A DNA stretch of 64,000 nt from Alphaproteobacteria bacterium. Its GTDB lineage: Bacteria > Pseudomonadota > Alphaproteobacteria > SP197. Shown in pieces: positions 3,060-58,992 of this stretch. The stretch is taken from the NCBI GenBank assembly GCA_965228895.1, contig OZ245842.1, positions 2,839,964 to 2,903,963 of the forward strand. Direction: 5' to 3'. How positions within the stretch are numbered: position 1 is the stretch's first letter; each line of letters starts with the position of its first letter. Below the pieces are notes generated by a model, which was not told the DNA's origin, searched no databases, and saw only the letters and a list, made by a program, of their open reading frames with translations. The translations under genes and the position numbers were made by a program.

Positions 3060-5707
<2,648 letters not shown>

Positions 5708-5711
5708 GCCG

Positions 5712-7808
5712 TTAACCTTCGATCCTGGAGAAGTCGGCCACACGGTCGAGCGCATGGCGAATACCTGATAGCAGACGCAGGCGGTTTTGACGCAAGCCAG
5801 CGTCGTCGCAATTGACAGTCACCTCATCAAAAAACGCATCGACCGGTGCGCGAAGACCGGAAAGCGCCGCCATGGCATCGGCGAAACGTTCTTCGTTCAG
5901 GGCCTCATCAGCCTGACTTGCGGCCTCCGCGAGCCCGGCGACAACGGCCTTTTCTTCGTCCTCTTCAAGCGCGCTCGTGTCGACGTTGCCATCATAGACG
6001 ACGCCGTCCTTCTTTTCCTCGATCTTCACGATGTTGCCGGCACGCCGATAGGCGGTCAGCAGGTTGGCGCCGTCCTCGCTCGCCAGGAACGCGCCCAACG
6101 CTTCGACCTTGGCGAGCAGGCGCACCAGATCGTCTTCACCGCTTTGTGCAAACACCGCATCAATGAGGTCGTGACGCACGCCCTCGCCGCGCAGATGCAC
6201 CTTCAACCGGTCGGCGATGAAGGCGAGTAGCTCGACGTTCTGCGTTATGACACCTTTGTCACGTCCCGGCCAACTGACCATCCCGCGCCCGTCGGGTTTG
6301 TACAGTTCGACCGCCAATTCAAAAGCGTCCATCAATCCAACTCGTAGTCCGTTTTCCACGACAAGTCGGATTAGACCAAGCGCAGCGCGCCGCAGGGCGA
6401 AGGGATCTTTCGAACCAGTTGGTTTCTCTTGGATCAAGAAAAACCCTACCAGCGTATCGATCTTATCCGCCAATGCGACGGCCACGCTTTCCGGTGCGCT
6501 GGGGCAAACATCGCCCGGCCCTTGAGGCGCATAGTGTTCGGCGATGGCCAAGGCGACGGCGTCATCCTCGCCGTCATGGCGGGCGTAGTAGGACCCCATC
6601 AGGCCTTGAAGATCGGGGAACTCGCCGACCATCTCGGTGGTCAGGTCGGCTTTGGCGAGGTTTGCGGCGCGGGCGGCCTTCTCGGCATCGCAATCCGGAA
6701 TCGCCTCGGCCAGCCGTCGCGCGAGCTTGATGAGGCGCGTTGTCTTGTTCGCGACCGTACCAAGCTTGGCGTGAAACACCACGGCACCCAGATCGTCGAC
6801 GCGATCTGCAAGCTCCCGCTTGCGGTCCTGATCCCAGAAATGACGGGCGTCTGCGAGGCGCGCGTTCAGCACCCGCTCGTTGCCGCCGGTGACCGTCTTG
6901 CCGTCGTCGAGGCCCGGCGCGTTGGCGGCAAAGATGAAACGCGGCGCGAGCTTTCCCTGCCTGTCGCGCACCGGCAGATAGCGTTGGTGGGAGGTCATGG
7001 AGCTGACCAGGACTTCCGGCGGCACTTCCATGAAGGCATCGTCGAAGGAGCCCATCAGCACGACCGGCCACTCGACCAGGCCGGCGATCTCGTCGAATAG
7101 GCCCTTCGGCGCGTCGACGGCAAGGCCGGCCTCTGTCGCCAGACGCGCCGCGCCCTCTTCGACCAACGCGCGCCGCTCGCCGCCTTCGAGCACGACCTTG
7201 GCCTCGCGCAGTTTCGTCTCATAGTCGGCGAACCCCGATACCGAAAACGCGCCGGGCGCCAGGAACCGATGCCCCTCGGTCTCGTCGCCCGATGTCACGG
7301 GACCGAAGGCGAACGGCACGACGGCGCCGTCGAACAGGGCGGTGATGCGGTGCATGGGCCGGACCCAGCGTTCGTCATGATCGCCCCAGCGCATGGATTT
7401 CGGCCACGGCAGCGCGGCCATGGTGGCGGGCAGGATCTCGGCCAGCACCTCGCCGGTCGCCCGGCCCTGACGTTCGACCACGGCGAACCAGCAGGGACCC
7501 TTGTCAGTATCGCGTTCGACGAGGTCGCCGGCGGCAATCCCGGCGGAGCGCGCAAACCCTTCGACCGCCTTGTCCGGTGCGCCGACCTTCGGGCCCTTAC
7601 GCTCTTCCTTCAGGTCTGGCTGGCTCGCTGCCAGACCGTCGATCACGAGGGTCAGCCGGCGTGGCGTGGCGAAATGGCGCGCGGGCTCGTGCTCAAGCCG
7701 CGCCTCGCCAAGCGCCTTGGTAACAAGGTCCGCAAGATCGCCCGCGGCGCGTTCCTGCATGCGCGCGGGGATCTCCTCGGAGAAGATTTCAAACAGAAGC
7801 TCAGCCAT
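5712..7808 (-). CDS. glyS: Glycine--tRNA ligase beta subunit
   Basis: 698 aa beginning '[18 protein letters not shown]'. The product has the canonical GlyS length and N-terminus. It overlaps glyQ by 8 nt and lies 4 nt upstream of ppdK. Confidence 0.9.
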
Positions 7809-18001: not shown

Positions 18002-19867
18002 TCACGTCTCCAGGCGGTAGACCTCAATCGACGCCGACCGGCCCTTCACCTCGTGGTGGCCGACCGCATGGACCACCGTCGAACCGTCGAGGGCCCGCCA
18101 TGTGGTATCGCTGATCAGCACGATGACATCACCGCTGGCCTGATCATCGAATGACTTGCCGAGCTGCTCCAGCCGCTGGCAGGTGTTCACGGTGTCGCCG
18201 ACGATGGTGTAGTTGACCCGGTCGGGCGCACCAATGTTGCCGACGATCACCGGGCCTGTGTGCAATCCGATGCGCACGCGCACGGCCTCTTCGCCACGTG
18301 CCCGCCGCTCGGCGTTGAGCGTCGCCATAGCCTCGGCAATGGCCTTGGCCGCACGGCAAGCGCGCATGGCGTGGTCGGGTTGATGTTCTGGCGCGCCCCA
18401 GAAGGCCATGACGGCATCGCCAATGTACTTGTCGACCGTGCCGCCCTCGGCCTCGACGCAGCTCGTGATAAGGGCGAAGTGTTCGTTCAGAAAGCGCGCC
18501 GTCTCAGCAGCCGGCAGGCGTTCGGCAAACGGCGTGAAACCGATGATATCGGTGAACATCACGGTGACCTCGCGCTCTTCGGACACGAAGTCGCGGTCCT
18601 CGATCATCAGGCGATGCACCAGCTTGCGCGGCACATAGTTCTCGAACCAGCGCAAGCCCGTCAGCATCAGATTGAAGGCGCCGTTGGCTTCGTCCAACTC
18701 GCGCATACGGCTTCGCGCGAGCGGGTCAACCTTGTCGAACTCGAGCGCGCCGATGCGCTGCGCCGAAATTGCGAGGTTGTGCACGGGTCCCGCGATGCGA
18801 TGGCCGATGAAGAACGCCGCCGCGACGCCCAACGCCAGCACAATCAGGCCCGCGATGATTGCCATGTTCAACCGCTCGAACTCGTCTTCGAAATCACTGC
18901 CGCGGTAGTAGCTGCCTAACAACCACGATACGTTCCCGAACGTGTCGATACGGTGATAGACGTAAAACCACTCCTCGCCGTCTATCTCAGTCATATGCGA
19001 TAAGACGCCGGAGCCCGAGATGTCCTCCGCCGGAAAAGTAGGCTCTTCCCATATTGCCGCAAGGATAGGGTCATCGACTTCGTCGATCAGCGGCACCGGT
19101 TTTTCCGGTGACAGGCCGCGTTCAATCGCGCCGACATCATCGGCCAGCGATGGATGGGCGAGGATCATGTCTTCACCCTGAAGAATGAAGACGCGGCTTC
19201 CGAAATCCTCTTCCAGTTCCGCAGCAAGACGGGAGAGCTTCTGGATTGAAACGCCGGCGCCTAAAACGCCGATGACGTCGCCATTGACGGACACAGGCCG
19301 ACGGATGGTCTGAACCGCGATCTCCAGGCCCGGCGACCAGACGACATCCCCCCAGCCGCCGCCCCGCATGTTGTCCATATCGTCGGTCAATGCATCGATG
19401 TCAGGTCCGCCAGCGTAGTCGTCGCTGATCCAATAGGCACCGCCGCCAACACGGCCGACGCCGCGAAGGCGTCCGTTCGTGTCGACGAAGATGATACCGT
19501 CAACCTGCGGCGTCGCCGCCAGCGCACCGGTCAGGACATCCTCCATCTGTTGATCATCATTGGGATCAAGCCGGCCGGCCGTGATCAGGTCATTGATAAA
19601 GTCGAGCTGGTCCTCCGCCGGTACCAGATGTTCTTCCAGCCGTGCCTCGACCGTGTCGATCGCGAAGACAGCTTGGTCCTGCAGCAGATCAATGGTCGAT
19701 TGGATGCCGCTCCAGATACTGATGACCAACACGCTCGCGGCCGCCAACAACACCAGCGCGCCCAGGCTCAGGCCCAGCAACATCGCAATGGGAATGCGCC
19801 AGGGCTTGCGCGCGTGCTGTGCCGCTGGCCCAGCATCAAGCCGTTCTGAAGATGTCCTTACCGCCAT
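18002..19867 (-). CDS. Class III adenylate/guanylate cyclase with N-terminal TM-anchored periplasmic sensor (Cache-like) and HAMP
   Basis: Two transmembrane helices flank a ~280-aa extracytoplasmic domain. The C-terminus has the cyclase core 'VTVMFTDIIGFT...KYIGDAVMAFWGAP...RIGLHTGPVIVGNIG'. Confidence 0.8.
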   Translation of the reverse strand: MAVRTSSERLDAGPAAQHARKPWRIPIAMLLGLSLGALVLLAAASVLVISIWSGIQSTIDLLQDQAVFAIDTVEARLEEHLVPAEDQLDFINDLITAGRLDPNDDQQMEDVLTGALAATPQVDGIIFVDTNGRLRGVGRVGGGAYWISDDYAGGPDIDALTDDMDNMRGGGWGDVVWSPGLEIAVQTIRRPVSVNGDVIGVLGAGVSIQKLSRLAAELEEDFGSRVFILQGEDMILAHPSLADDVGAIERGLSPEKPVPLIDEVDDPILAAIWEEPTFPAEDISGSGVLSHMTEIDGEEWFYVYHRIDTFGNVSWLLGSYYRGSDFEDEFERLNMAIIAGLIVLALGVAAAFFIGHRIAGPVHNLAISAQRIGALEFDKVDPLARSRMRELDEANGAFNLMLTGLRWFENYVPRKLVHRLMIEDRDFVSEEREVTVMFTDIIGFTPFAERLPAAETARFLNEHFALITSCVEAEGGTVDKYIGDAVMAFWGAPEHQPDHAMRACRAAKAIAEAMATLNAERRARGEEAVRVRIGLHTGPVIVGNIGAPDRVNYTIVGDTVNTCQRLEQLGKSFDDQASGDVIVLISDTTWRALDGSTVVHAVGHHEVKGRSASIEVYRLET

Positions 19868-42922: not shown

Positions 42923-44062
42923 CTACCCGTCGGTTGTCTCGAACAGGGTGAGCACGCCGGTATAGGCATAGAGGCGGTCGAACGAGATCTCGCCGTTGCC
43001 GAAGAAACCAACCATCGGCACGTCGCCCAACACCTCGCGCACGATCGCCATCTCGCTCTGGGCGCCATCAAACATGTTGGGGCCGCGCGCCAGGCAGCTG
43101 AAGTAGAGACCTCCGGCCACGTTACCGGCGCGCTTGCGAACGTCGCCGACCATTCGCTTCAGATCGGCTTCCGCGGCCGCGCGGTCGCGGCGGCAGAACA
43201 TCAGGGCATCGCCCATGCCGACACGCTCGCCGATCACCACCGCGCCACTGTTGGGTTCGATGCCGACCAGATTGCGCACCAGATAATCACCGGTATCGGA
43301 TCCGGACACCGGCAGACCAACGTGAAGGGATCCCGACAATTGGCGCGGGTCCGAAATACCCTCAGTCGCCAGTTCCTCGACGAACACATCCATCGCCGGG
43401 CGGTCATTCAAACAATGAACGACGTTCTCATCGACCTTGGTCACCTGATGAATACCGCCCAGCGGCACGCAGCCCTGCGTTAAACCGGTGCTGACGCGCA
43501 CAGAGCTGTCGAAAAGAACACCAGAGATCTCTCGCTCGACCGGGCGCCCCGCCATCTGCATGGTTGCGCCGCGCGACGAACTTAAGCCACCGACCAGATA
43601 GCCGTCGGTATCGCGCGCCAGACCGGCGATCGCCTCGACCAGATTGGGCATACGCGGATCACCATGGACGACGGCGAAACTACCCTGCCCCATCGCGCCG
43701 CCGCGCCGGTCGTCGTAACTGCGGACCGCCTCCTCCGCGCTGGTGAAAAGGCTCAAGGCGTCTTCGGGAAACCTGCCGGTCATCGCCGCAACCGCCGGCC
43801 GGTCAAAGTACTCGCTGCCGGCTGCGCAGATTCCGATGCCGACCGTGCCGCACCAGCTCGTCACACCGGTCGCGGCGGCCAGGAACCCCGCGATTTCACC
43901 GAGGGCGTCGGCGAAATGATCGGTGACATAGACAAAGCCCAGCGTGTCGTCGTCGCGGTCGCCCAAAACCTCGGCAACCGATCGGGCGGCCTGCTGCCAT
44001 GTTTCCGCGCTGGCATGGGCAACGTGAAACTGGCCGGTCACAACGTCAGATGTTTCGTTCAT
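42923..44062 (-). CDS. FIST-domain sensor protein
   Basis: 379 aa with N- and C-terminal FIST-type regions ('FVYVTDHFADAL...', 'MVGFFGNGEI'). Confidence 0.6.
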   Translation of the reverse strand: MNETSDVVTGQFHVAHASAETWQQAARSVAEVLGDRDDDTLGFVYVTDHFADALGEIAGFLAAATGVTSWCGTVGIGICAAGSEYFDRPAVAAMTGRFPEDALSLFTSAEEAVRSYDDRRGGAMGQGSFAVVHGDPRMPNLVEAIAGLARDTDGYLVGGLSSSRGATMQMAGRPVEREISGVLFDSSVRVSTGLTQGCVPLGGIHQVTKVDENVVHCLNDRPAMDVFVEELATEGISDPRQLSGSLHVGLPVSGSDTGDYLVRNLVGIEPNSGAVVIGERVGMGDALMFCRRDRAAAEADLKRMVGDVRKRAGNVAGGLYFSCLARGPNMFDGAQSEMAIVREVLGDVPMVGFFGNGEISFDRLYAYTGVLTLFETTDG

Positions 44063-44182
44063 ATAACCAGAATAGGCTCGCCAACTGACGGGTCAACAGG
44101 ATCACGTCCTTCGCCTATAATGTGACCATGAGAGACCACATCACTTGCCGGCCGTGACCGCGCGATCAACGGCGGCATCACC

Positions 44183-44800
44183 GTGACAGCGAGATGCGGT
44201 TGGTTTCTGGGGTTCGCGTTGTCATGCCTGGTCATCGCACCGGCCACCGCCGAATCGATCACGGTCAAAGGACTGACCTTCACCGATGAGCTCGGCGGGT
44301 TTCGCCTGTTGGCGGCATGGGGCAGCGGTTCGCTCGAAGACCCGATCACGGTGGTCGAAGAAATCACCAGCACCAGGGGCGCCGTCTTGATGATCCGAGG
44401 CGTTGGCCCGCATACCGGCAACGCCATTCCGACCAACCATCCCGCCGGCTTCGCACTGCGCAAGATCGTCACCAACGCGACCAACCAGACCTGGACGTTC
44501 TTTGATATCGAGTTGCAGAAGTTGCTGGGTACACCAAGCGACATCTACGACGGGCTGTCGTTCGGCCAGGATGCGCAGGCCGGGCGGCCGTTTACCTCCA
44601 ATCGATTCGGCCAAAGCGTGTCGCAGGACGAGCCGCGCGATCACGTCACGTTTTTTGATGGCGTGGTCGAACCGGGCGAAACCGTCAGCATGGACTTCGT
44701 CATCACCGCAACCGGTTACGTCACAGAACTGATGCTGCTGCAAAAACCGAACCGCCCGGTCGCATCGATCGACGGCGGCGCCACGGACCACGGCGGATGA
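44183..44800 (+). CDS. Secreted hypothetical protein, translationally coupled to the downstream cyclase
   Basis: The signal peptide is 'FLGFALSCLVIAPATAES'. The stop overlaps the next gene's ATG (ATGA at 44797-44800). Confidence 0.5.
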   Translation: MTARCGWFLGFALSCLVIAPATAESITVKGLTFTDELGGFRLLAAWGSGSLEDPITVVEEITSTRGAVLMIRGVGPHTGNAIPTNHPAGFALRKIVTNATNQTWTFFDIELQKLLGTPSDIYDGLSFGQDAQAGRPFTSNRFGQSVSQDEPRDHVTFFDGVVEPGETVSMDFVITATGYVTELMLLQKPNRPVASIDGGATDHGG

Positions 44801-46464
44801 TCGCGCGCATCAGACTGGGCTCCGGGCTGGTGCTTATGGTCTTTCTTGCCAGCCACCTGATCAACCACGCGCTGGGCATCCATTCTCTGGCCTGGATGGA
44901 GGCTGGCCGGCGTGTCTTCGATGGGGTTTGGCGCAGTACGCCGGGCACGGTCGTGCTGTGCGCGGCACTGGTCCTCCATCTGGGCCTGGTCTTCTGGGCG
45001 CTCTACCGGCGCAACAGCCTGGCCATGCCGCCACGCGAGTGGGCCCAGCTCTTGCTGGGGCTCACCATACCGCTGCTGGTCGCAGAACACGTGGCCGGCA
45101 CAAGGGGCGCCAACGAACTGTTCGGCGTCAACGACACTTATCCCTACGTTATCTATGCGCTATGGGTGGACGCGCCGTGGAAAGGCGTTCTGCAGTCGGT
45201 CCTGATCATCACCGCCTGGCTGCACGGCTGCTTGGGGATACACTTCTGGCTGCGCCTGAAACCCTGGTATCGGCGCTGGCAATGGTGCGCCTTCAGCTTG
45301 GCAATCCTGGTCCCCATCCTTGCCCTTGGCGGTTTTGTCGGCGCCGGCATTGACGTCGCGCGCTTGGCCAGTGACCCCGACTGGCTGCCCGAGTTTCTCG
45401 CCTCGACCGGCGTCGGGCGCGTCTTCGAACAGCTCTCAGCCTTCATGGCCCAAGCGCAACTCTGGACGATCGCCGTGGTCGTGGCCTTGGTCGCCACCGT
45501 TCTGCTTCTCAGATGGCTTCGCATGGCATTTGCCGCCCGGCGAAAAGCCCCTCGCCTGACCTACCCCAACGGTCAGGTGGTCGAGATCGCGCCGGGCTCG
45601 ACCGTGCTGGAGACCAGCCGCGCCGCCGACATTCCCCACGCCTCGGTTTGCGGCGGGCGCGGCCGTTGCTCGACCTGCCGCGTCCGGCTGGGCCACGGTC
45701 GAGATGATCTGGAACCGCCCGACGCCGATGAGCGCAAGGTCTTGGAGCGCATCGGCGATCCACCCCATGTCCGCTTGGCGTGTCAGCTTCGCCCGACCGC
45801 GGACCTTGCAGTCACCCCCTTGCTGCCCGCGCACGCCGGCCCCGCCGACGCGGTCATGCGCCAACGACCCGCCGGCGCCGGACGGGAACAGGAGATCGCC
45901 GTATTGTTTGCCGACCTCCGGGGCTTCACCACGCTGTCGGAAGCCAACCTTCCCTATGACACCGTCTTTGTCCTGAACCGCTATTTCGAAGCCATGGGCC
46001 ATGCCATCGAGGGCGCCGGCGGGCAGATCGACAAGTTTATCGGTGACGGCGTCATGGCGCTGTTTGGCGTCGACGGCACGATCGATAATGGATGCCGCCA
46101 GGCACTCGACGCGACGGAGGCCATGAGCCACGCGCTTGCCGCGCTCAACCGTTCGCTCGCCAAGGAGATTGAACAGCCGCTTCGACTCGGCATCGGCCTG
46201 CATGTCGGGCCGGCGGTGATCGGCGAAATGGGGTACGGCGAAACCATGCACATGACGGCAATCGGCGACGTCGTGAACACGGCGAGCCGGCTGGAGGGTG
46301 CGACGAAAGATCTGCGCTGCGATCTCGTTGTCTCAGAGCGTGTCGTGGAGCTGGCCGGCGTGCCCGAGATGCCCGGGTTGCCTCACGATCTGACGGTTCG
46401 CGGCAAGCGGGAAACCCTTCGGGTACGCGCCATCAGCAACCTCGCCGGCACACCAAAGTTATAA
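44797..46464 (+). CDS. Class III adenylate cyclase with N-terminal 6TM domain and 2Fe-2S ferredoxin domain
   Basis: About 220 aa of transmembrane helices are followed by the Fer2-like region 'IPHASVCGGRGRCSTCRVRL...VRLACQ'. The cyclase core follows: 'IAVLFADLRGFT...KFIGDGVMALFG...GLHVGPAVIGEMG'. Confidence 0.75.
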   Translation: MIARIRLGSGLVLMVFLASHLINHALGIHSLAWMEAGRRVFDGVWRSTPGTVVLCAALVLHLGLVFWALYRRNSLAMPPREWAQLLLGLTIPLLVAEHVAGTRGANELFGVNDTYPYVIYALWVDAPWKGVLQSVLIITAWLHGCLGIHFWLRLKPWYRRWQWCAFSLAILVPILALGGFVGAGIDVARLASDPDWLPEFLASTGVGRVFEQLSAFMAQAQLWTIAVVVALVATVLLLRWLRMAFAARRKAPRLTYPNGQVVEIAPGSTVLETSRAADIPHASVCGGRGRCSTCRVRLGHGRDDLEPPDADERKVLERIGDPPHVRLACQLRPTADLAVTPLLPAHAGPADAVMRQRPAGAGREQEIAVLFADLRGFTTLSEANLPYDTVFVLNRYFEAMGHAIEGAGGQIDKFIGDGVMALFGVDGTIDNGCRQALDATEAMSHALAALNRSLAKEIEQPLRLGIGLHVGPAVIGEMGYGETMHMTAIGDVVNTASRLEGATKDLRCDLVVSERVVELAGVPEMPGLPHDLTVRGKRETLRVRAISNLAGTPKL

Positions 46465-46533: not shown

Positions 46534-47733
46534 GTGGGTTTAAGATCGGTGCAGAAACGATCCGGTATTTTGGTGTCCGTGGTCTTGGCCAGTGCGCTTG
46601 TGCTGTCGCCGGCCTATGCCGACTTCGAAGCCGGCATGCAGGCCTATGACGCCGGTGACTACGCGGCCGCCATCTCGGAATGGCAGCCGCTGGCCGAACA
46701 AGGCAATCTGGAAGCCCAATTCGGCATGGGCATCATCTATGAGAACGGCCGCGGCATTGGCCGTGATTATACCGAAGCAGCCAAGTGGTATGCCGCCGCA
46801 GCCGAGGGCGGCCATCCCGGCGCCCAGTTCAATCTTGGAAACATCTACCAACAGGGCCTGGGTGTACCCAAGGACCCCTCGCGGGCGGTCTACTGGTGGA
46901 CGTTGTCGGCGGCTCAGGGCTTGTCGGATGCCCAACTGAACCTGGGAATCGCCTATCACCGCGGCGACGGCGTCGCGCGTGACCAGGACTTGGCGTTCTC
47001 GTGGTTCGAGCGGGCGGCCGAAGCGGGCAACCCTATGGGCCAGTTCTCCGCCGGTTACGCCTATGAAACCGGCCTGGGGACCGAGGTCAATTTGAATGAA
47101 GCACGCCGCCTCTACGCGGCGGCTGCCGAAGCCGGTATCCAGCAGGCTGCAAATCGGCTGGCCGTTCTGGGTCCGCCCGATGACGTGGCCGCCACCGAAC
47201 TCGTCCCCGAACCGGTCATGGAGACCGAGCCCGTCGAGTCGATTGAGTCGGCCGAGGTGATTCTGGAAGACGCGCCAAGCGAGGACATCACGGAGACCGA
47301 GCCCGTCGAGACAGACGAGGTCGCGGAAACCGTGCCGGAGCCGACCGTTGGCGACAGCGGTACGGAGCCGACAACCGATAGTTCGGCGATCGACTACAGC
47401 GCGGTCGAAGCGACCGAGACGGTCGAAACTGTCGAAACAGCCGCTGTCGAGACCGAGACGACCGTTGCCCCCGCGCAAGGCGGCGGCCCCTATATCCAGA
47501 TCGCCGCATACCTGAGCGAAGACCGTGCCGAGGCCGCGTGGCAGGACATTACCGGGCGGTTTCCCGATCTGCTGGGCGGCCTGCCCCACCGTGTCTTGAT
47601 GGTCGATCTTGGTGGTGAATTGGGCACGGTCTATCGCCTGCAGGCCGGACCGATGCCGGCCCAGGCTGAAGCGCAGGCTATCTGTAACGAGCTAAAGGCC
47701 AAGAACGCCGATTGTTTCCTGGTTGGACCTTAG
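46534..47733 (+). CDS. Sel1-repeat protein with C-terminal SPOR (peptidoglycan-binding) domain
   Basis: A signal peptide is followed by about five Sel1 repeats ('AQFNLGNIYQQGLGVPKD' and similar) and an acidic linker rich in E, T, P and V. The SPOR-like C-terminus reads 'YIQIAAYLSEDRAEAAWQDI...YRLQAGPM'. Confidence 0.65.
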   Translation: MGLRSVQKRSGILVSVVLASALVLSPAYADFEAGMQAYDAGDYAAAISEWQPLAEQGNLEAQFGMGIIYENGRGIGRDYTEAAKWYAAAAEGGHPGAQFNLGNIYQQGLGVPKDPSRAVYWWTLSAAQGLSDAQLNLGIAYHRGDGVARDQDLAFSWFERAAEAGNPMGQFSAGYAYETGLGTEVNLNEARRLYAAAAEAGIQQAANRLAVLGPPDDVAATELVPEPVMETEPVESIESAEVILEDAPSEDITETEPVETDEVAETVPEPTVGDSGTEPTTDSSAIDYSAVEATETVETVETAAVETETTVAPAQGGGPYIQIAAYLSEDRAEAAWQDITGRFPDLLGGLPHRVLMVDLGGELGTVYRLQAGPMPAQAEAQAICNELKAKNADCFLVGP

Positions 47734-47736
47734 ATC

Positions 47737-48129
47737 CTACTGAGCGTCCGGGCTGTTGGCTTTCAGATAGGCAATGACGTTGGCGATGTCGTCCTCCTTG
47801 GTCAGGCGGAACGTCATTTTGACGCCAGAGATGTATTTGGTCGGCCCGGCCAACCATTCGGTCAGTGTTGCTTCGTCCCAAACGATGCCGGATTCGGGCA
47901 GCTTGCCGGAATCGAGCGATCCCGCTTCGTTTGAACCCGCCGCGCTGCCGTAGACCCCAAACAAATTTGGACCTTGCTTCGGTGCGCCGCCTTGTTCGAT
48001 CGTGTGGCAGACCTTGCAGCGGTTGAACACCTTCTCACCTTGGGCAACATCGCCTTCGGCCCAAGCCGATTGCGCGGTGAGCCCAAGAGCGAGCGTGAGC
48101 AAAGATCCGAAAGCGGCAACACGTTTCAT
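47737..48129 (-). CDS. Class I c-type cytochrome (c2/c550-like)
   Basis: The signal peptide is followed by the heme motif 'CKVCHT'. Met appears as sixth ligand in 'GVKMTF', and 'NVIAYLK' is typical of cytochrome c2. Confidence 0.8.
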   Translation of the reverse strand: MKRVAAFGSLLTLALGLTAQSAWAEGDVAQGEKVFNRCKVCHTIEQGGAPKQGPNLFGVYGSAAGSNEAGSLDSGKLPESGIVWDEATLTEWLAGPTKYISGVKMTFRLTKEDDIANVIAYLKANSPDAQ

Positions 48130-48227: not shown

Positions 48228-48716
48228 TTACGATCCCGTGCACTCACCGCAGTTTTCGACCGGCAGATCCCTGGCCAACCATCCCGGACCGTCGCCGCTG
48301 CCGACCATGCCCTCGCCAATATCGTAGATCTGTTCAAACCCCTCGCCCTCCAGAAGGACATGCGCGATCGCGGAACGAACGCCGGCGGCGCAAATCAACG
48401 CGATCGGGCGTGACCTGTCGCCACCGGCAAGAGCCGTGACCTCTTCGACAAAATCCAGGTTCGGCAGACCATAGGCCAGAAACAGACTTGCCCTGCCAGC
48501 GCCCTCAGGAATACCGGTTTCGCGCCACTCCGATTCCGTCCGGATGTCGACAATCAGAAGCTCGCCCTGGCCAGACTGCTGCCATGCGTCCGGTGCCGAG
48601 AGCAGACCGTCGCCCTCCGCATAAGCCGGCGCAATAACAAAGAACACGAGCGCAAAAGCAAGGGATGGGCCGCGAACGGCCCATCCCCAGATCATCAAGC
48701 AGACGTTGGTTGTCAT
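48228..48716 (-). CDS. Periplasmic rhodanese-domain protein (sulfurtransferase)
   Basis: The start is trimmed to 'MTTNVCLMIWGW' with a signal peptide 'AFALVFFVIAPAYA'. The rhodanese active-site loop is 'ICAAGVRS'. Confidence 0.65.
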   Translation of the reverse strand: MTTNVCLMIWGWAVRGPSLAFALVFFVIAPAYAEGDGLLSAPDAWQQSGQGELLIVDIRTESEWRETGIPEGAGRASLFLAYGLPNLDFVEEVTALAGGDRSRPIALICAAGVRSAIAHVLLEGEGFEQIYDIGEGMVGSGDGPGWLARDLPVENCGECTGS

Positions 48717-48729
48717 CGGTTGATGATGA

Positions 48730-51282
48730 TCAGTTTCGATACTCCTCGGGGATGAAGAGCAGCGAATCCACCTCGGCGCCAATATGACAGTCGATGCAGA
48801 ACGCCACCTTTTCTGTACCCTCCCCGTTTGTGGTGCCGACAGTCTTGCCGTTGGGCATGATCAGGGTGTAGCGCCAGTCATCGGAGTCGGCGTTAAATCC
48901 CGAAGCCATCTTCTCCATGACAAACAACGGTCCGGGCACCACCGTGCCCTTTGCCGTCACCGCGAAGCTGTCCTTGGCCAGCACGGCACCAGCAGGCATG
49001 GTGCCGCCGTTTTCGTACTCGCCATATGACTGCGCCGCTGCGGCGTCAGCGTAATTGTTCACGAAGCGTCCGCCGTGGGTGTACGACTTGTAGGGCACGG
49101 AGTTGTACTTTTCCCATCCGCTGTAGGCGGACGAGATGTCAAGACCGGTGCTGGACATCAAATTGGCCTTGGCATAGCCGACTTCCATCTGCGCCTTGAT
49201 GCAGTCGTAAGCCGCCACAGCCTCGTCATTGGTCAGTTCGATGTCGACGCCGGCACCGCAGCCGCCGCACGCACCACAGCCGCCACACGCACCGCAACCG
49301 CCGCACGCACCACAGGCTCCACAAGCACCACAAGCACCACAGCCGCCACACGCACCGCAGCCACCGCAAGCGCCACAGGCTCCGCAAGCGCCGCAGGCCG
49401 AGCAGGCATCGCAGGCACTGCAGCCCGCCGCCATGCCGGCCGCAGGAACCGCCTCCGGATTCTCCTGCAAGCTCGCGCCGCAACCGCCGCACGCGCCACA
49501 GGCACCGCACGCGCCGCAGCCGCCACAGGCTCCGCAATCGGCCCAAGCGATGCTCGGCACCACGCAACCGGTGTCGGCTTCTGCCGCACAACCGCCGCAT
49601 GCACCACAACCACCGCACGCGCCACACGCTCCGCAAGCACCACACGCGCCGCAGCCACCACAGGCTCCGCATGCACCGCATGCACCGCATGCACCGCATG
49701 CACCGCATGCGTCACAAGCAGAACATGCGCCGCAAGCAGAACATGCGCCGCAGCCTGCCGCCATGCCGCTTGGCAACGCTTCCGGGTTCTCATGGCTGGC
49801 GCCATCTTCGTCGTCGGACCCGTCGGATTTCTCACCGCGCGGTTCCCACCAGTCCTCGCCGTCGCGTTTGGCACGCACTGCAAACTTCATGGCGCCATTC
49901 GAGTCTTCCAGGCTGGCGCCGCAACATCCACCACACGCACCGCAGGCATCACAGGCCGCGCAACACGCCGAGCACGCATCACACGCGCCGCAAGCCGAGC
50001 ACGCATCGCAGGCACCGCAGCCCGCCGCCATGCCAGTCGGCAGGGCGTCCGGATTGTCGAGGCTGGCGCCGCAGCATCCACCACACGCACCGCAGGCATC
50101 ACAAGCCGCACAACATGCCGAACACGCATCACACGCGCCGCAAGCCGAGCACGCATCGCACGCACCGCAGCCCGCCGCCATGCCGGTCGGCAGGGCGTCC
50201 GGATTGTCGAGGCTGGCGCCGCAGCATCCACCGCACGCACCGCAGGCATCACAGGCCGCACAACATGCCGAACACGCATCGCACGCGCCGCAAGCCGAGC
50301 ACGCATCGCACGCACCGCAGCCCGCCGCCATGCCGGTCGGCAGGGCGTCCGGATTGTCGAGGCTTGCGCCGCAACATCCACCGCACGCTCCGCAGGCATC
50401 ACAAGCCGCGCAACACGCCGAGCACGCATCACACGCGCCGCAAGCCGAGCACGCATCGCAGGCACCGCAGCCCGCCGCCATGCCAGTCGGCAGGGCGTCC
50501 GGATTGTCGAGGCTGGCGCCGCAACATCCACCGCAAGCTCCGCAGGCATCACAGGCCGCGCAACACGCCGAGCACGCATCACACGCGCCGCAAGCCGAGC
50601 ACGCATCGCACGCACCGCAGCCAGCCGCCATGCCGGTCGGCAGGGCGTCCGGATTGTCGAGGCTGGCGCCGCAACATCCACCGCAAGCTCCGCAGGCATC
50701 ACAAGCCGCGCAACATGCCGAACACGCATCACACGCGCCGCAAGCCGAGCACGCATCGCACGCACCGCAGCCCGCCGCCATGCCAGTCGGCAGGGCGTCC
50801 GGATTGTCGAGGCTTGCGCCGCAACATCCACCACACGCACCGCAGGCATCACAAGCCGCGCAACATGCCGAACACGCATCACACGCGCCGCAAGCCGAGC
50901 ACGCATCGCACGCACCGCAGCCCGCCGCCATGCCAGTCGGCAGGGCGTCCGGATTGTCGAGGCTTGCGCCGCAACATCCACCACACGCACCGCAGGCATC
51001 ACAGGCCGCGCAACACGCCGAACACGCATCGCACGCGCCGCAAGCCGAGCACGCATCGCACGCACCGCAGCCCGCCGCCATGCCGGTCAAAGCACGATCG
51101 GCGATGGACAAGGAGGCGGGCATGGGAACGGCGGCCGGATTTTCGACCGCGCGTGGATTGACAAGGCGACAGCTGGCGCGACCACAAGGCGCTGCCGCAA
51201 CGCTGACGGCAAGCGCAACGCCGGCGCCCATAAAGGCCGGCAGCATCGTGCTCGACAGCAGATTACGTTTGAGTTCACTCAT
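48730..51282 (-). CDS. Secreted giant Cys-periodic repeat protein fused to a cytochrome P460-like heme domain
   Basis: A GGGAGG ribosome-binding site sits 11 nt upstream. The signal peptide is 'MSELKRNLLSSTMLPAFMGAGVALAVSVAAAP'. Eight 43-aa units 'MAAGCGACDACSACGACDACSACCAACDACGACGGCCGASLDNPDALPTG' follow, then further (CxA/CxG)n blocks. The ~165-aa C-terminus 'DDWRYTLIMPNGK...VAFCIDCHIGAEVDSLLF' has a CXXCH motif and the P460/c'-beta family pattern. The heme domain has no signal peptide of its own, so it must be exported using the N-terminal one. Confidence 0.6.
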   Translation of the reverse strand: MSELKRNLLSSTMLPAFMGAGVALAVSVAAAPCGRASCRLVNPRAVENPAAVPMPASLSIADRALTGMAAGCGACDACSACGACDACSACCAACDACGACGGCCGASLDNPDALPTGMAAGCGACDACSACGACDACSACCAACDACGACGGCCGASLDNPDALPTGMAAGCGACDACSACGACDACSACCAACDACGACGGCCGASLDNPDALPTGMAAGCGACDACSACGACDACSACCAACDACGACGGCCGASLDNPDALPTGMAAGCGACDACSACGACDACSACCAACDACGACGGCCGASLDNPDALPTGMAAGCGACDACSACGACDACSACCAACDACGACGGCCGASLDNPDALPTGMAAGCGACDACSACGACDACSACCAACDACGACGGCCGASLDNPDALPTGMAAGCGACDACSACGACDACSACCAACDACGACGGCCGASLEDSNGAMKFAVRAKRDGEDWWEPRGEKSDGSDDEDGASHENPEALPSGMAAGCGACSACGACSACDACGACGACGACGACGACGGCGACGACGACGACGGCGACGGCAAEADTGCVVPSIAWADCGACGGCGACGACGACGGCGASLQENPEAVPAAGMAAGCSACDACSACGACGACGACGGCGACGGCGACGACGACGACGGCGACGGCGACGGCGAGVDIELTNDEAVAAYDCIKAQMEVGYAKANLMSSTGLDISSAYSGWEKYNSVPYKSYTHGGRFVNNYADAAAAQSYGEYENGGTMPAGAVLAKDSFAVTAKGTVVPGPLFVMEKMASGFNADSDDWRYTLIMPNGKTVGTTNGEGTEKVAFCIDCHIGAEVDSLLFIPEEYRN
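49990..51081. repeat. Eight near-identical tandem 129-bp in-frame DNA repeats
   Basis: The period is 129 bp and the units are nearly identical, differing by about 1-5 nt each. A less regular 9-bp (CxA)n periodicity continues to about 49230. Confidence 0.85.
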
Positions 51283-58266: not shown

Positions 58267-58512
58267 AACGGACCAAACATTGTAGTCGGTCAGCGTTTGC
58301 CGGCACTTCGGGCAAAACCCAGCAACATTCAACATGTAAGCAATATTCGCAAACTATGACAGCCGTCACACCGTTCTTTCTCGCGTAGGTTGCGACTCAT
58401 TAGTATTGTCAATCCCGCCAACTGCTCTATCGCGGGTTGTGGTCGGCTGTTTCCCCGGCATACGCCCCGGCTGAGCGACTTGATTAAGACAAAATCTGGA
58501 GGGACTTGGATT

Positions 58513-58992
58513 ATGTCTTTTGGACGCCGAGACGTTTACGACCGACGGAGCGAGCCACGCACCGATATCCTGCAACGGGTCAGCCTAGTCTTCGGAGAAA
58601 AAGATGCGACGGCGACTGGGTTAATCCGCAACATCTCGATGAGCGGCCTAAGGTTTGTCGCCGACACGCCGCTCAACCTGCCGCGCCACGTAACCTTGGT
58701 CTTCGGCAACGGCGAGCGCTTCGACTGCGATGTCGTGCGCGAGGAAAACGGTACGGAGTTCGGTTTGAAGTTCGCCGACCTCGGCGCCTTCGGCCGCTCC
58801 GAGGCTAAGGAGAGCATCGACGCAGTCTATCAAATCACCAAAAGCCGCTCGCCCATGGACATCTACAACATGATGGAGCGGGTCGAATTTTTTGGTGACG
58901 AGGAACTCGAGTCGGCAACGCGCGACTATGCCGCCGCCTATGATCACATGATCGGCCTTTACCGAAAGCGGGTCTTTGCGCAGCAAACGTAG
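58513..58992 (+). CDS. PilZ-domain protein (c-di-GMP binding)
   Basis: Contains 'RRSEPR' followed by 'DxSxSG' in 'LIRNISMSGLRF'. The ORF opens at 58390. Confidence 0.55.
   Translation: MSFGRRDVYDRRSEPRTDILQRVSLVFGEKDATATGLIRNISMSGLRFVADTPLNLPRHVTLVFGNGERFDCDVVREENGTEFGLKFADLGAFGRSEAKESIDAVYQITKSRSPMDIYNMMERVEFFGDEELESATRDYAAAYDHMIGLYRKRVFAQQT

Follow-up and report, generated by a model that had tools for sequence, protein, structure and literature searches.

The 555-aa protein encoded in the window, the whole 64,000-nucleotide stretch of alphaproteobacterial DNA analyzed here, is very probably a class IIIb adenylate cyclase of the CyaC family, judged from its sequence and predicted structure, and represents a further example of an architecture that has already been described. 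The proposed membership rests on the features listed below and on the homologues known from rhizobia.

44797..46464, plus strand: putative CyaC-type adenylate cyclase, 555 aa (domains, alignments and conservation)
44797..45516, plus strand: predicted six-transmembrane (TM) anchor, aa 1-240, N-terminus cytoplasmic (hydropathy, positive-inside rule and AF2)
44854-56 and 44866-68, plus strand: codons of H20 and H24 in TM1 (HxxNH motif), predicted diheme-b histidines
44977-79, 45088-90 and 45223-25, plus strand: codons of H61 (TM2), H98 (TM3) and H143 (TM4), predicted diheme-b histidines
45568..45798, plus strand: [2Fe-2S] ferredoxin domain, aa 258-334 (Pfam Fer2, E 6e-9)
45883..46347, plus strand: class III cyclase catalytic domain, aa 363-517 (Pfam Guanylate_cyc, E 1e-17), with the metal ligands D373 and D417, the adenine-specifying K413, T487, and the transition-state residues N494 and R498

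Domain architecture and known relatives of the cyclase

Six TM helices were recognized in aa 1-240 by hydropathy and in the AlphaFold model (pLDDT 93.3), and this region contains 7 histidines and 14 tryptophans. The preliminary description of the locus correctly pointed out a six-helix domain rich in these residues but did not recognize it as a diheme-b anchor. In S. meliloti CyaC, this anchor is the actual input site. The hemes were overlooked in that description. As expected for a hexahelical anchor of the CyaC type, the C-terminal domains are placed in the cytoplasm by hydropathy, the positive-inside rule and AF2. The tetra-histidine signature, one histidine on each of four TM helices, was found, albeit the invariant TM histidines are five, not four, and both H20 and H24 are candidates for the heme ligand in TM1. 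Among 90 relatives sharing 45-86% identity with the window cyclase, H61, H98 and H143 are kept in all and H20 and H24 in 89, while H149 is variable (66/90).

The anchor model was compared with 350,542 PDB chains by Foldseek, and the top two matches were chain C of QFR from W. succinogenes (2bs4_C; TM-score 0.56/0.55, prob 1.0) and D. gigas (5xmj_C; TM-score 0.47/0.54). The E-values of the two matches were weak (0.26 and 0.9) despite these TM-scores, and the remaining matches reached TM-scores of 0.36 at most. Searches with a TM-domain profile, at E up to 10 against all PDB sequences and against Pfam, retrieved nothing relevant; thus, the link of the anchor to Frd/Sdh cytochrome b rests on the fold comparison and the literature. 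In other words, kinship to the diheme-b subunits of succinate:quinone oxidoreductases is seen in the fold and not in the sequence. Like the window anchor, the quinone-reactive subunit C of QFR (W. succinogenes FrdC and its Desulfovibrio gigas counterpart) is a helical bundle with heme-ligand histidines on four helices at alternating membrane faces. On the other hand, the window anchor has six TM helices instead of five, shares only 15-17% identity with subunit C, and continues into ferredoxin and cyclase domains in one polypeptide, whereas subunit C docks to FrdA/B; the role of the former would be signalling, by analogy, and that of the latter is catalysis. Altogether, the sequence and the model indicate that the anchor is of a predicted diheme-b type, with the fold of QFR subunit C and the four-helix histidine signature. 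No structure of a CyaC-type anchor was found in the PDB.

The ferredoxin domain lies between the anchor and the catalytic domain, the position of the four-cysteine binuclear Fe-S domain in CyaC-type cyclases. Its predicted cluster ligands, C285, C291, C294 and C329, are spaced as C-x5-C-x2-C-x34-C, while the spacing in plant-type ferredoxins is C-x4-C-x2-C-x29-C. Matches to NCBIfam were fdx_isc (3e-9) and nqrF (1e-8), and the closest ferredoxins were ISC Fdx, NqrF and those of the adrenodoxin type (PDB 3ah7, 2mjd and NqrF) rather than plant or cyanobacterial ones. Because of this spacing and these best matches, the label 'plant-type' given to the domain earlier is wrong, and we regard the domain as adrenodoxin/ISC-Fdx/NqrF-like. 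Substitution of the cysteines in orthologues had been named as a sign of degeneration. The four ligand cysteines are conserved in 89-90 of the 90 relatives, so a degenerate domain is not indicated.

The catalytic domain carries all six canonical residues in addition to the Pfam match, in agreement with the canonical class III core noted before. T487 replaces the second specificity Asp, a hallmark of class IIIb, and in the alignment to the solved cyclases 2w01 and 1wc1, the lysine and the threonine match those of Spirulina CyaC (1wc1). The adenylate-specific lysine and the class IIIb threonine of the CyaC type are therefore both present. D373, D417, T487 and R498 are kept in 90/90 relatives, K413 in 78/90 and N494 in 81/90. 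Class IIIb cyclases are often bicarbonate-responsive, which would be a second input. Both Fer2 and the cyclase domain were detected, at full length, in all of the best 120 database matches.

S. meliloti CyaC (SMc01818), likewise of an alphaproteobacterium, comprises a 6TM anchor with the histidine signature, a [2Fe-2S] ferredoxin domain and a class III(b) cyclase domain in the same order. Its 6TM domain holds two heme B and the protein has a [2Fe-2S] cluster (PMC10463352); regulation via the di-heme-B membrane domain is stated in a second article (PMC9552081). The class had been predicted from four intramembrane histidines and the ferredoxin domain as cluster 1 of Beltz et al. 2016 (PMC4821796), which held about 30 class IIIb cyclases, e.g., Rhodopseudomonas palustris Q132R4. 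The features of cluster 1, namely class IIIb, an intervening ferredoxin domain, four precisely spaced intramembrane histidines and elongated loops, are all found in the window protein. The similarity to Frd/Sdh cytochrome b is shared too, albeit detected by simple BLAST for cluster 1 (PMC4821796) and by the fold comparison only for the TM domain of the window protein.

Gene neighborhood and the upstream protein p205

The neighborhood of the cyclase gene and other signalling genes in the window comprise the following:

42923..44062, minus strand: FIST_N + FIST_C protein, 379 aa, divergent (Pfam domains)
44096-44069, minus strand: second candidate promoter, facing the FIST gene (consensus match only)
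44093..44121, plus strand: candidate sigma-70-like promoter, TCAACA-17-TATAAT, 10/12 (consensus match only)
44183..44800, plus strand: p205, 205-aa secreted protein, GTG start (ORF, signal peptide and AF2)
44797..44800, plus strand: ATGA start/stop overlap of p205 and the cyclase (sequence)
46534..47733, plus strand: secreted Sel1-repeat + SPOR protein, 69 nt 3' of the cyclase on the same strand
18002-19867, minus strand: second cyclase with dCache_1, HAMP and cyclase domains (domain scan)
58390-58992: PilZ protein (domain annotation)

The preliminary description gave the two coupled reading frames, the second cyclase with a Cache-like domain and HAMP, and the FIST and PilZ proteins, all of which were confirmed at these positions. 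The p205 frame (44183-44800, 205 aa) and the cyclase frame (44797-46464, 555 aa) overlap by ATGA, the cyclase ATG (44797-44799) sharing bases with the p205 TGA (44798-44800), which implies translational coupling. The candidate promoter of p205 sits in the 120-bp divergent FIST/p205 intergenic region, where two sites were seen against 0.4 expected. No promoter-like site was found at the p205-cyclase junction, such sites being only upstream of p205. From the overlap, the spacing, the promoter position and the clade described below, we infer that p205 and the cyclase are co-transcribed and translationally coupled in this sub-lineage. Synteny between the FIST gene and p205 is seen in many relatives, among them those from which the cyclase has been lost, and the synteny of the Sel1/SPOR gene is kept in most relatives.

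Based on the sequence and the model, p205 is a periplasmic beta-sandwich protein. A signal peptide (aa 1-23) with an A-x-A cleavage site (ATA|ES) conserved in homologues precedes a mature domain of ~175 aa, which is modeled as an all-beta sandwich and is devoid of cysteines (AF2 pLDDT 84.8, pTM 0.78). We also considered p205 as a lipoprotein (Cys15) and rejected this option, as there is no lipobox, the cysteine is unconserved and the A-x-A site is conserved. The motifs GLxFSDExGG, DPxxVVEE and DGLSFGQ are conserved in p205, and Foldseek retrieved only generic beta-sandwich matches from the PDB (TM-score 0.34 or lower). The family comprises 448 cluster representatives. To Pfam DUF6423, a domain without known function, p205 is at best a distant relative: the match over aa 87-177 scored 21.4 bits (E 2e-4), below the gathering threshold of 29.7 bits, and 13 of 30 p205 relatives matched at E up to 0.01 (best 1.4e-5). 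The literature search found no paper that mentions DUF6423.

The coupling raised the idea, put forward in the preliminary description, of a periplasmic co-sensor. Under this reading, p205 would be a dedicated regulatory subunit that docks to the diheme anchor from the periplasmic side and adds an extracytoplasmic input. Apart from the ATGA overlap, the reading is favored by the p205-cyclase distance, which ranges from -7 to +6 nt (13 of 14 listed linked loci, seven of them with a -4 overlap) though the cyclases of these loci are only ~50-55% identical, and by the linked p205 genes falling in one clade. The predicted location of p205 is on the same side of the membrane as the three loops of the anchor, at aa 29-50, 102-130 and 186-216. 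In another branch of the family, about 12 loci have a p205 relative directly 5' of a gene encoding a CHASE2 histidine kinase, which is a membrane sensor as well. These loci form one tight clade (76-92% identical), and the pairing may thus be simple synteny.

Against such a role, p205 was linked in only 2 of the 80 CyaC-like genome loci and was absent in 78; the p205-family metagenome loci with enough flank, surveyed with a closer alignment since that of the broad family was too divergent for locus scanning, had the cyclase in 8 of 56. The linkage is therefore not kept wherever either partner occurs. Even within the linked clade, there were at least three events of cyclase loss or decay in which p205 was retained intact; in L083, L084, L088 and L089, the cyclase is deleted or reduced to a remnant. 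Most members of the wider family are flanked by valS and ilvD/edd or have amidase, MFS or DUF502 genes as neighbors. Mature p205 contains no cysteine, heme motif or metal motif, and the only residues specific to p205-linked cyclases are V65 (TM2) and G348 (linker), none being in the periplasmic loops. In an NJ tree, the linked cyclases did not form one clean clade but were split into three neighboring groups; as the tree was star-like and unresolved, we draw no conclusion from it. Furthermore, S. meliloti CyaC functions without p205; its gene is preceded by that of the TetR-type CycR and is supposedly co-transcribed with a LysR-type gene. The coupled secreted protein upstream, the divergent FIST gene and the downstream Sel1/SPOR gene distinguish the window cyclase from it. 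Altogether, the tight coupling holds in one clade, and we consider a dedicated co-sensor rather doubtful; the role is possible but weakly supported. Most likely, p205 serves the same physiological response as the cyclase, which would not depend on it to function.

Proposed redox control and nucleotide specificity

By analogy with S. meliloti CyaC, two hemes b in the anchor would equilibrate with the respiratory quinone pool, and the dimeric catalytic domain would be switched by their redox state, with the Fe-S domain acting as a relay or in concert with them. Oxidizing conditions (oxidized quinone or O2) would yield more cAMP and reducing conditions (quinol or NADH) less. Which way the regulation would run in the window cyclase, and what its Fe-S cluster would do, are carried over from a relative of probably ~45-50% identity. 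According to PMC10463352 (citing Wissig et al. 2019), S. meliloti CyaC is oxidized or reduced by ubiquinone and activated by oxidation, and its activity responds to quinone/quinol, O2 and NADH. That cAMP synthesis would be gated by redox state or electron flux was also the proposal of the preliminary description; it agrees with these experiments and with the earlier prediction (PMC4821796). The idea is thus right but not new, as it had been published for S. meliloti CyaC.

A different reading takes the heme-heme-[2Fe-2S] chain as a transmembrane electron wire, or the cluster as the primary sensor of O2, NO or ROS, so that electron flux or the integrity of the cluster, and not the poise of the quinone pool, would be what the cyclase reports. 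In the wire variant, electrons would pass between a cytoplasmic donor or acceptor and the quinone or a periplasmic partner. In line with this reading, the ferredoxins nearest to the Fer2 domain (ISC Fdx, NqrF and adrenodoxin) function in electron transfer, and the arrangement resembles, by fold, that of QFR, in which the proximal heme receives electrons from the Fe-S clusters of subunit B. The CyaC descriptions consulted do not define what the cluster does. Genes for a cytochrome c, a rhodanese and a cytochrome P460 protein lie nearby; they are, however, on the strand opposite to the cyclase and belong to a gene order that is shared across the lineage and retained even after loss of the cyclase. 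Pfam detected no flavin or NAD(P)H-binding domain in the window protein that would feed the cluster, and quinone analogues oxidize or reduce the CyaC hemes and alter the activity (PMC10463352). We regard the wire or cluster-sensor reading as unlikely and retain control by the quinone pool through the hemes.

It is highly improbable that the window protein is a degenerate, non-cyclase relic or a guanylate cyclase: K413 is replaced by Gln in 12/90 relatives and N494 by His in 9/90, implying that some family members may differ in specificity or activity, but the window protein carries D373, K413, D417, T487, N494 and R498 together with intact ligand sets, and its Lys/Thr pair is that of adenylate-specific class IIIb enzymes. 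Wissig et al. (2019) reportedly did not detect guanylate cyclase activity of S. meliloti CyaC. The latter is described as a cAMP-synthesizing adenylate cyclase in PMC10463352.

Spread of the CyaC-like family and implications

The CyaC-like family, now far larger than the 30 sequences of cluster 1, was found in at least 573 loci in GTDB genomes and in 168 plasmid records. Full-length copies of less than 60% identity occur in 166 plasmid records, mostly of Rhizobium, and the Rhizobium/Sinorhizobium plasmid copies listed, including that of Sinorhizobium sp. RAC02, are full-length with about 46-47% identity. One Rhizobium plasmid copy is flanked by genes for a glycosyltransferase and an FkbM methyltransferase, suggesting that neighborhoods vary across the family; no CycR-like neighbor was found beside this copy.

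The locus is new only in its operon with a secreted protein, which is specific to one clade, and in the FIST and Sel1/SPOR neighbors. It is rather unlikely, in our view, that the p205 family, not described before, was recruited in one alphaproteobacterial sub-lineage as an accessory subunit that gives the CyaC-type anchor a periplasmic input. Should p205 prove to modulate the cyclase, it would be the first known periplasmic accessory factor for a membrane adenylate cyclase. The family may serve the CHASE2 histidine kinase likewise in another lineage, and if this were true too, it would constitute a portable periplasmic adaptor for membrane sensors.

To our knowledge, only one member of the CyaC class, from a rhizobial symbiont, has been studied biochemically. 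The window cyclase would be a good construct for structural work. By analogy, it appears to be a well-conserved further example of the coupling of respiratory-chain redox state to cAMP, in a family that is very widespread in free-living and marine or soil Alphaproteobacteria. This spread, the near-invariant cofactor ligands and the confident fit of the anchor model to the diheme subunit of fumarate reductase support CyaC as a general model.

Architecture and conserved ligands of the cyclase

The locus comprises two ORFs, the second of which carries two Pfam domains:

44183-44800, + strand, ORF of 205 aa with a GTG start, encoding a secreted protein (p205)
44797-46464, + strand, ORF of 555 aa, encoding the cyclase
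cyclase aa 258-334, Fer2 domain (Pfam E 6e-9)
cyclase aa 363-517, Guanylate_cyc domain (Pfam E 1e-17)

The window sequence bore out both ORFs and their junction as previously described, the cyclase ATG (44797) overlapping the TGA of the p205 ORF to give ATGA. The order of a six-helix anchor, a ferredoxin and a class III cyclase also agreed with hydropathy and the two Pfam domains. Six hydrophobic segments were found, with basic residues at the N-terminus and on the even-numbered loops, and we therefore place the N-terminus, Fer2 and the catalytic domain in the cytoplasm. Fer2 and the cyclase domain were present at full length in all of the 120 best database relatives; no Pfam family matched aa 1-240.

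The preliminary description overlooked the key input module, a diheme anchor. The AlphaFold model of aa 1-248 was very confident (pLDDT 93.3, pTM 0.86), and its best match among 350,542 PDB chains was the diheme-b subunit C of Wolinella succinogenes quinol:fumarate reductase (QFR; TM-score 0.56/0.55, probability 1.0), followed by subunit C of Desulfovibrio gigas QFR (0.47/0.54); beyond these two chains, no TM-score in that set exceeded 0.36. Among 90 sequences sharing 45-86% identity, H61, H98 and H143 were invariant and H20 and H24 were each kept in 89, while H149 is not a conserved ligand because it varies (66/90). Given the N-in topology, H20/H24 (TM1) and H98 (TM3) would lie toward the periplasmic side and H61 (TM2) and H143 (TM4) toward the middle or the cytoplasmic side. 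Judged from these helix positions, the placement would be the alternation expected of a distal and a proximal heme.

The ferredoxin cysteines are spaced C-x5-C-x2-C-x34-C and the best domain matches were ISC ferredoxin, NqrF and adrenodoxin-like proteins, so that the earlier label "plant-type" was wrong. Substitution of these cysteines, which had been named as grounds for doubting the domain, was all but absent, all four being kept in 89-90 of the 90 sequences. In the catalytic core, K413 and T487 aligned with the Lys and Thr of Spirulina CyaC (1wc1) in an alignment to solved cyclases, which is the class IIIb pattern. D373, D417, T487 and R498 were kept in 90/90, K413 in 78/90 and N494 in 81/90. 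Gln replaces the adenine-specifying K413 in 12 of the 90 and His replaces N494 in nine; all of these relatives retain the heme and Fe-S ligands and may form a group whose nucleotide specificity or activity is altered.

Neighbouring and other genes

42923-44062, - strand, stand-alone FIST_N+FIST_C protein, divergent from p205
46534-47733, + strand, secreted protein carrying four Sel1 repeats plus a peptidoglycan-binding SPOR domain, starting 69 nt after the cyclase
47737-48129 and 48228-48782, - strand, monoheme cytochrome c and rhodanese-domain protein, between the Sel1/SPOR and P460 genes
48730-51282, - strand, 850-aa ORF with a signal-peptide-like N-terminus and a C-terminal cytochrome P460 domain (Pfam 1.3e-6)
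18002-19867, - strand, 621-aa dCache_1-HAMP-cyclase protein
58390-58992, + strand, 200-aa PilZ-domain protein

The second cyclase, the FIST protein and the PilZ protein had all been recognised earlier, and domain searches recovered each of them. The FIST/p205 pairing was kept in the related loci L017, L081, L083-L091 and L095, including loci that have lost the cyclase, and p205 may be tied more constantly to FIST than to the cyclase; in some of these loci, a fatty-acid desaturase or transposase gene is inserted between the pair. IS elements (Transposase_mut, IS1595-type, DDE_Tnp_1) separate FIST from the p205-cyclase operon at L081 3470-4768 and L082 53-4772, in a 73%-identical relative. The Sel1/SPOR gene is syntenic in most relatives and also follows CyaC-like genes without p205 (L001, L022). 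A different branch of the p205 family has the order valS, p205 homologue, CHASE2-HisKA-HATPase histidine kinase, ilvD/edd (L127 4001-6732 and about 11 further loci, L104, L107, L110, L116-L118, L120, L122 and L131-L133), the kinase starting about 33 nt past the p205-homologue stop; sister loci have valS, p205 and ilvD without the kinase.

The cytochrome c, rhodanese and P460 trio is syntenic in L083. Within the P460 ORF, a 50-aa unit rich in Cys, Ala, Gly and Asp (MAAGCGACDACSACGACDACSACCAACDACGACGGCCGASLDNPDALPTG) recurs about eight times; in the DNA this is a tandem repeat of 150 bp at 49910-51088 (7.9 copies, 96% matches), a region with strong GC and AT skew. The repeats are followed by more CGAC-type low-complexity sequence. 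We regard the repeat region as a lineage-specific expansion because the syntenic gene in L083 encodes only 152 aa.

p205 and its linkage to the cyclase

p205 begins with a signal peptide whose A-x-A cleavage site is conserved, and its mature domain of about 175 aa has no cysteine. AlphaFold modelled it confidently as an all-beta sandwich (pLDDT 84.8); comparison with the PDB turned up no specific relative among solved structures (TM-score at most 0.34). Pfam gave only a below-threshold likeness to DUF6423, which a literature search found mentioned in no paper. Relatives numbered 37 by word-index search and 448 cluster representatives by exhaustive profile search; the latter each consist of a single domain and are some 200-300 aa long.

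The preliminary description proposed p205 as a periplasmic co-sensor of the cyclase. Three observations speak for a partnership. Across the 14 listed loci with p205 beside a cyclase, the stop-to-start distance was -7 to +6 nt in all but one, and seven had the 4-nt ATGA/GTGA overlap seen in the window, although their cyclases share only about 50-55% identity with the window cyclase. A neighbour-joining tree of 89 family members grouped the linked p205 genes in a single clade, and the sole promoter-like consensus match lies upstream of p205. Judging from gene arrangement, the predicted co-transcription is real and conserved in this sub-lineage.

On the other hand, an obligatory co-sensor role is unlikely. 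A p205 homologue was present at just two of 80 CyaC-like genome loci (L008, L017). Sinorhizobium meliloti cyaC, which encodes the same domain order, is flanked instead by TetR- and LysR-type regulator genes (PMC10463352), and a Rhizobium plasmid copy neighbours glycosyltransferase and methyltransferase genes. Furthermore, the cyclase was lost from some loci of the linked clade while p205, FIST and other neighbours were retained. In L083 a clean deletion took most of the Sel1/SPOR gene as well, leaving a 134-aa ORF (5612-6016) that matches Sel1 residues 13-76; L084 keeps a decayed TM-domain remnant (5464-5733; 33% identity to cyclase aa 1-117; 56-aa ORF called there); in L088 and L089, p205 is directly followed by Sel1/SPOR. 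These four absences are secondary losses, as the loci are nested among cyclase-bearing ones in the tree. In the wider family, 56 metagenome loci extended far enough downstream to be scored. A cyclase adjoined the p205-family gene in eight of them and a CHASE2 histidine kinase in about 12, the kinase-linked loci being one tight clade; the rest had ilvD/edd, amidase, MFS, DUF502 or other genes, and valS frequently lay upstream. The three periplasmic loops of the cyclase contained no residue specific to p205-linked cyclases.

At L092 (1796-3514), the p205-homologue frame is stop-free for 1.15 kb beyond its expected end, although the cyclase has its normal start there, at 2361 in a different frame. 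The overrun probably reflects an assembly error or the loss of the stop codon.

Relation to CyaC and proposed mechanism

A 2016 study predicted the class from some 30 class IIIb cyclases of alpha- and beta-proteobacteria that cluster together and have four intramembrane His and a ferredoxin domain (PMC4821796). S. meliloti CyaC carries two hemes B in a six-TM domain together with a [2Fe-2S] cluster; ubiquinone oxidises or reduces the hemes, and oxidation activates the cyclase (PMC10463352; see also PMC9552081). Redox gating of cAMP synthesis, as proposed for the window cyclase, would be correct by analogy but had already been published for CyaC (PMC10463352). The CyaC-like family is common, with at least 573 loci in species-representative genomes, mostly of Alphaproteobacteria (including Kiloniella, Sneathiella, Nisaea, Dongia, Ferrovibrio, Microvirga and one Rhizobiaceae MAG). 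Copies under generic annotation also occur in 168 plasmid or chromid records, mainly of Rhizobium and Sinorhizobium (46-47% identity among the matches listed).

The ligand sets, fold, topology, catalytic residues and operon structure of the locus are documented directly here, and the mechanism follows CyaC by homology: hemes b would exchange electrons with the quinone pool, and the catalytic domain, as a homodimer, would make cAMP when activated by oxidation and be inhibited by reduction. The [2Fe-2S] domain may serve as a relay or as a second sensor. That the heme and Fe-S chain acts as an electron wire, or the cluster as the sensor, seems rather improbable and is retained because the closest relatives of the domain are electron-transfer ferredoxins and the Fe-S subunit of fumarate reductase adjoins the proximal heme.

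Altogether, the architecture is already known and experimentally tested, and the window cyclase is a further member of a characterised kind. Its pairing with an uncharacterised periplasmic protein in a clade-specific operon adds something new, if modest, and the evidence on it is mixed.
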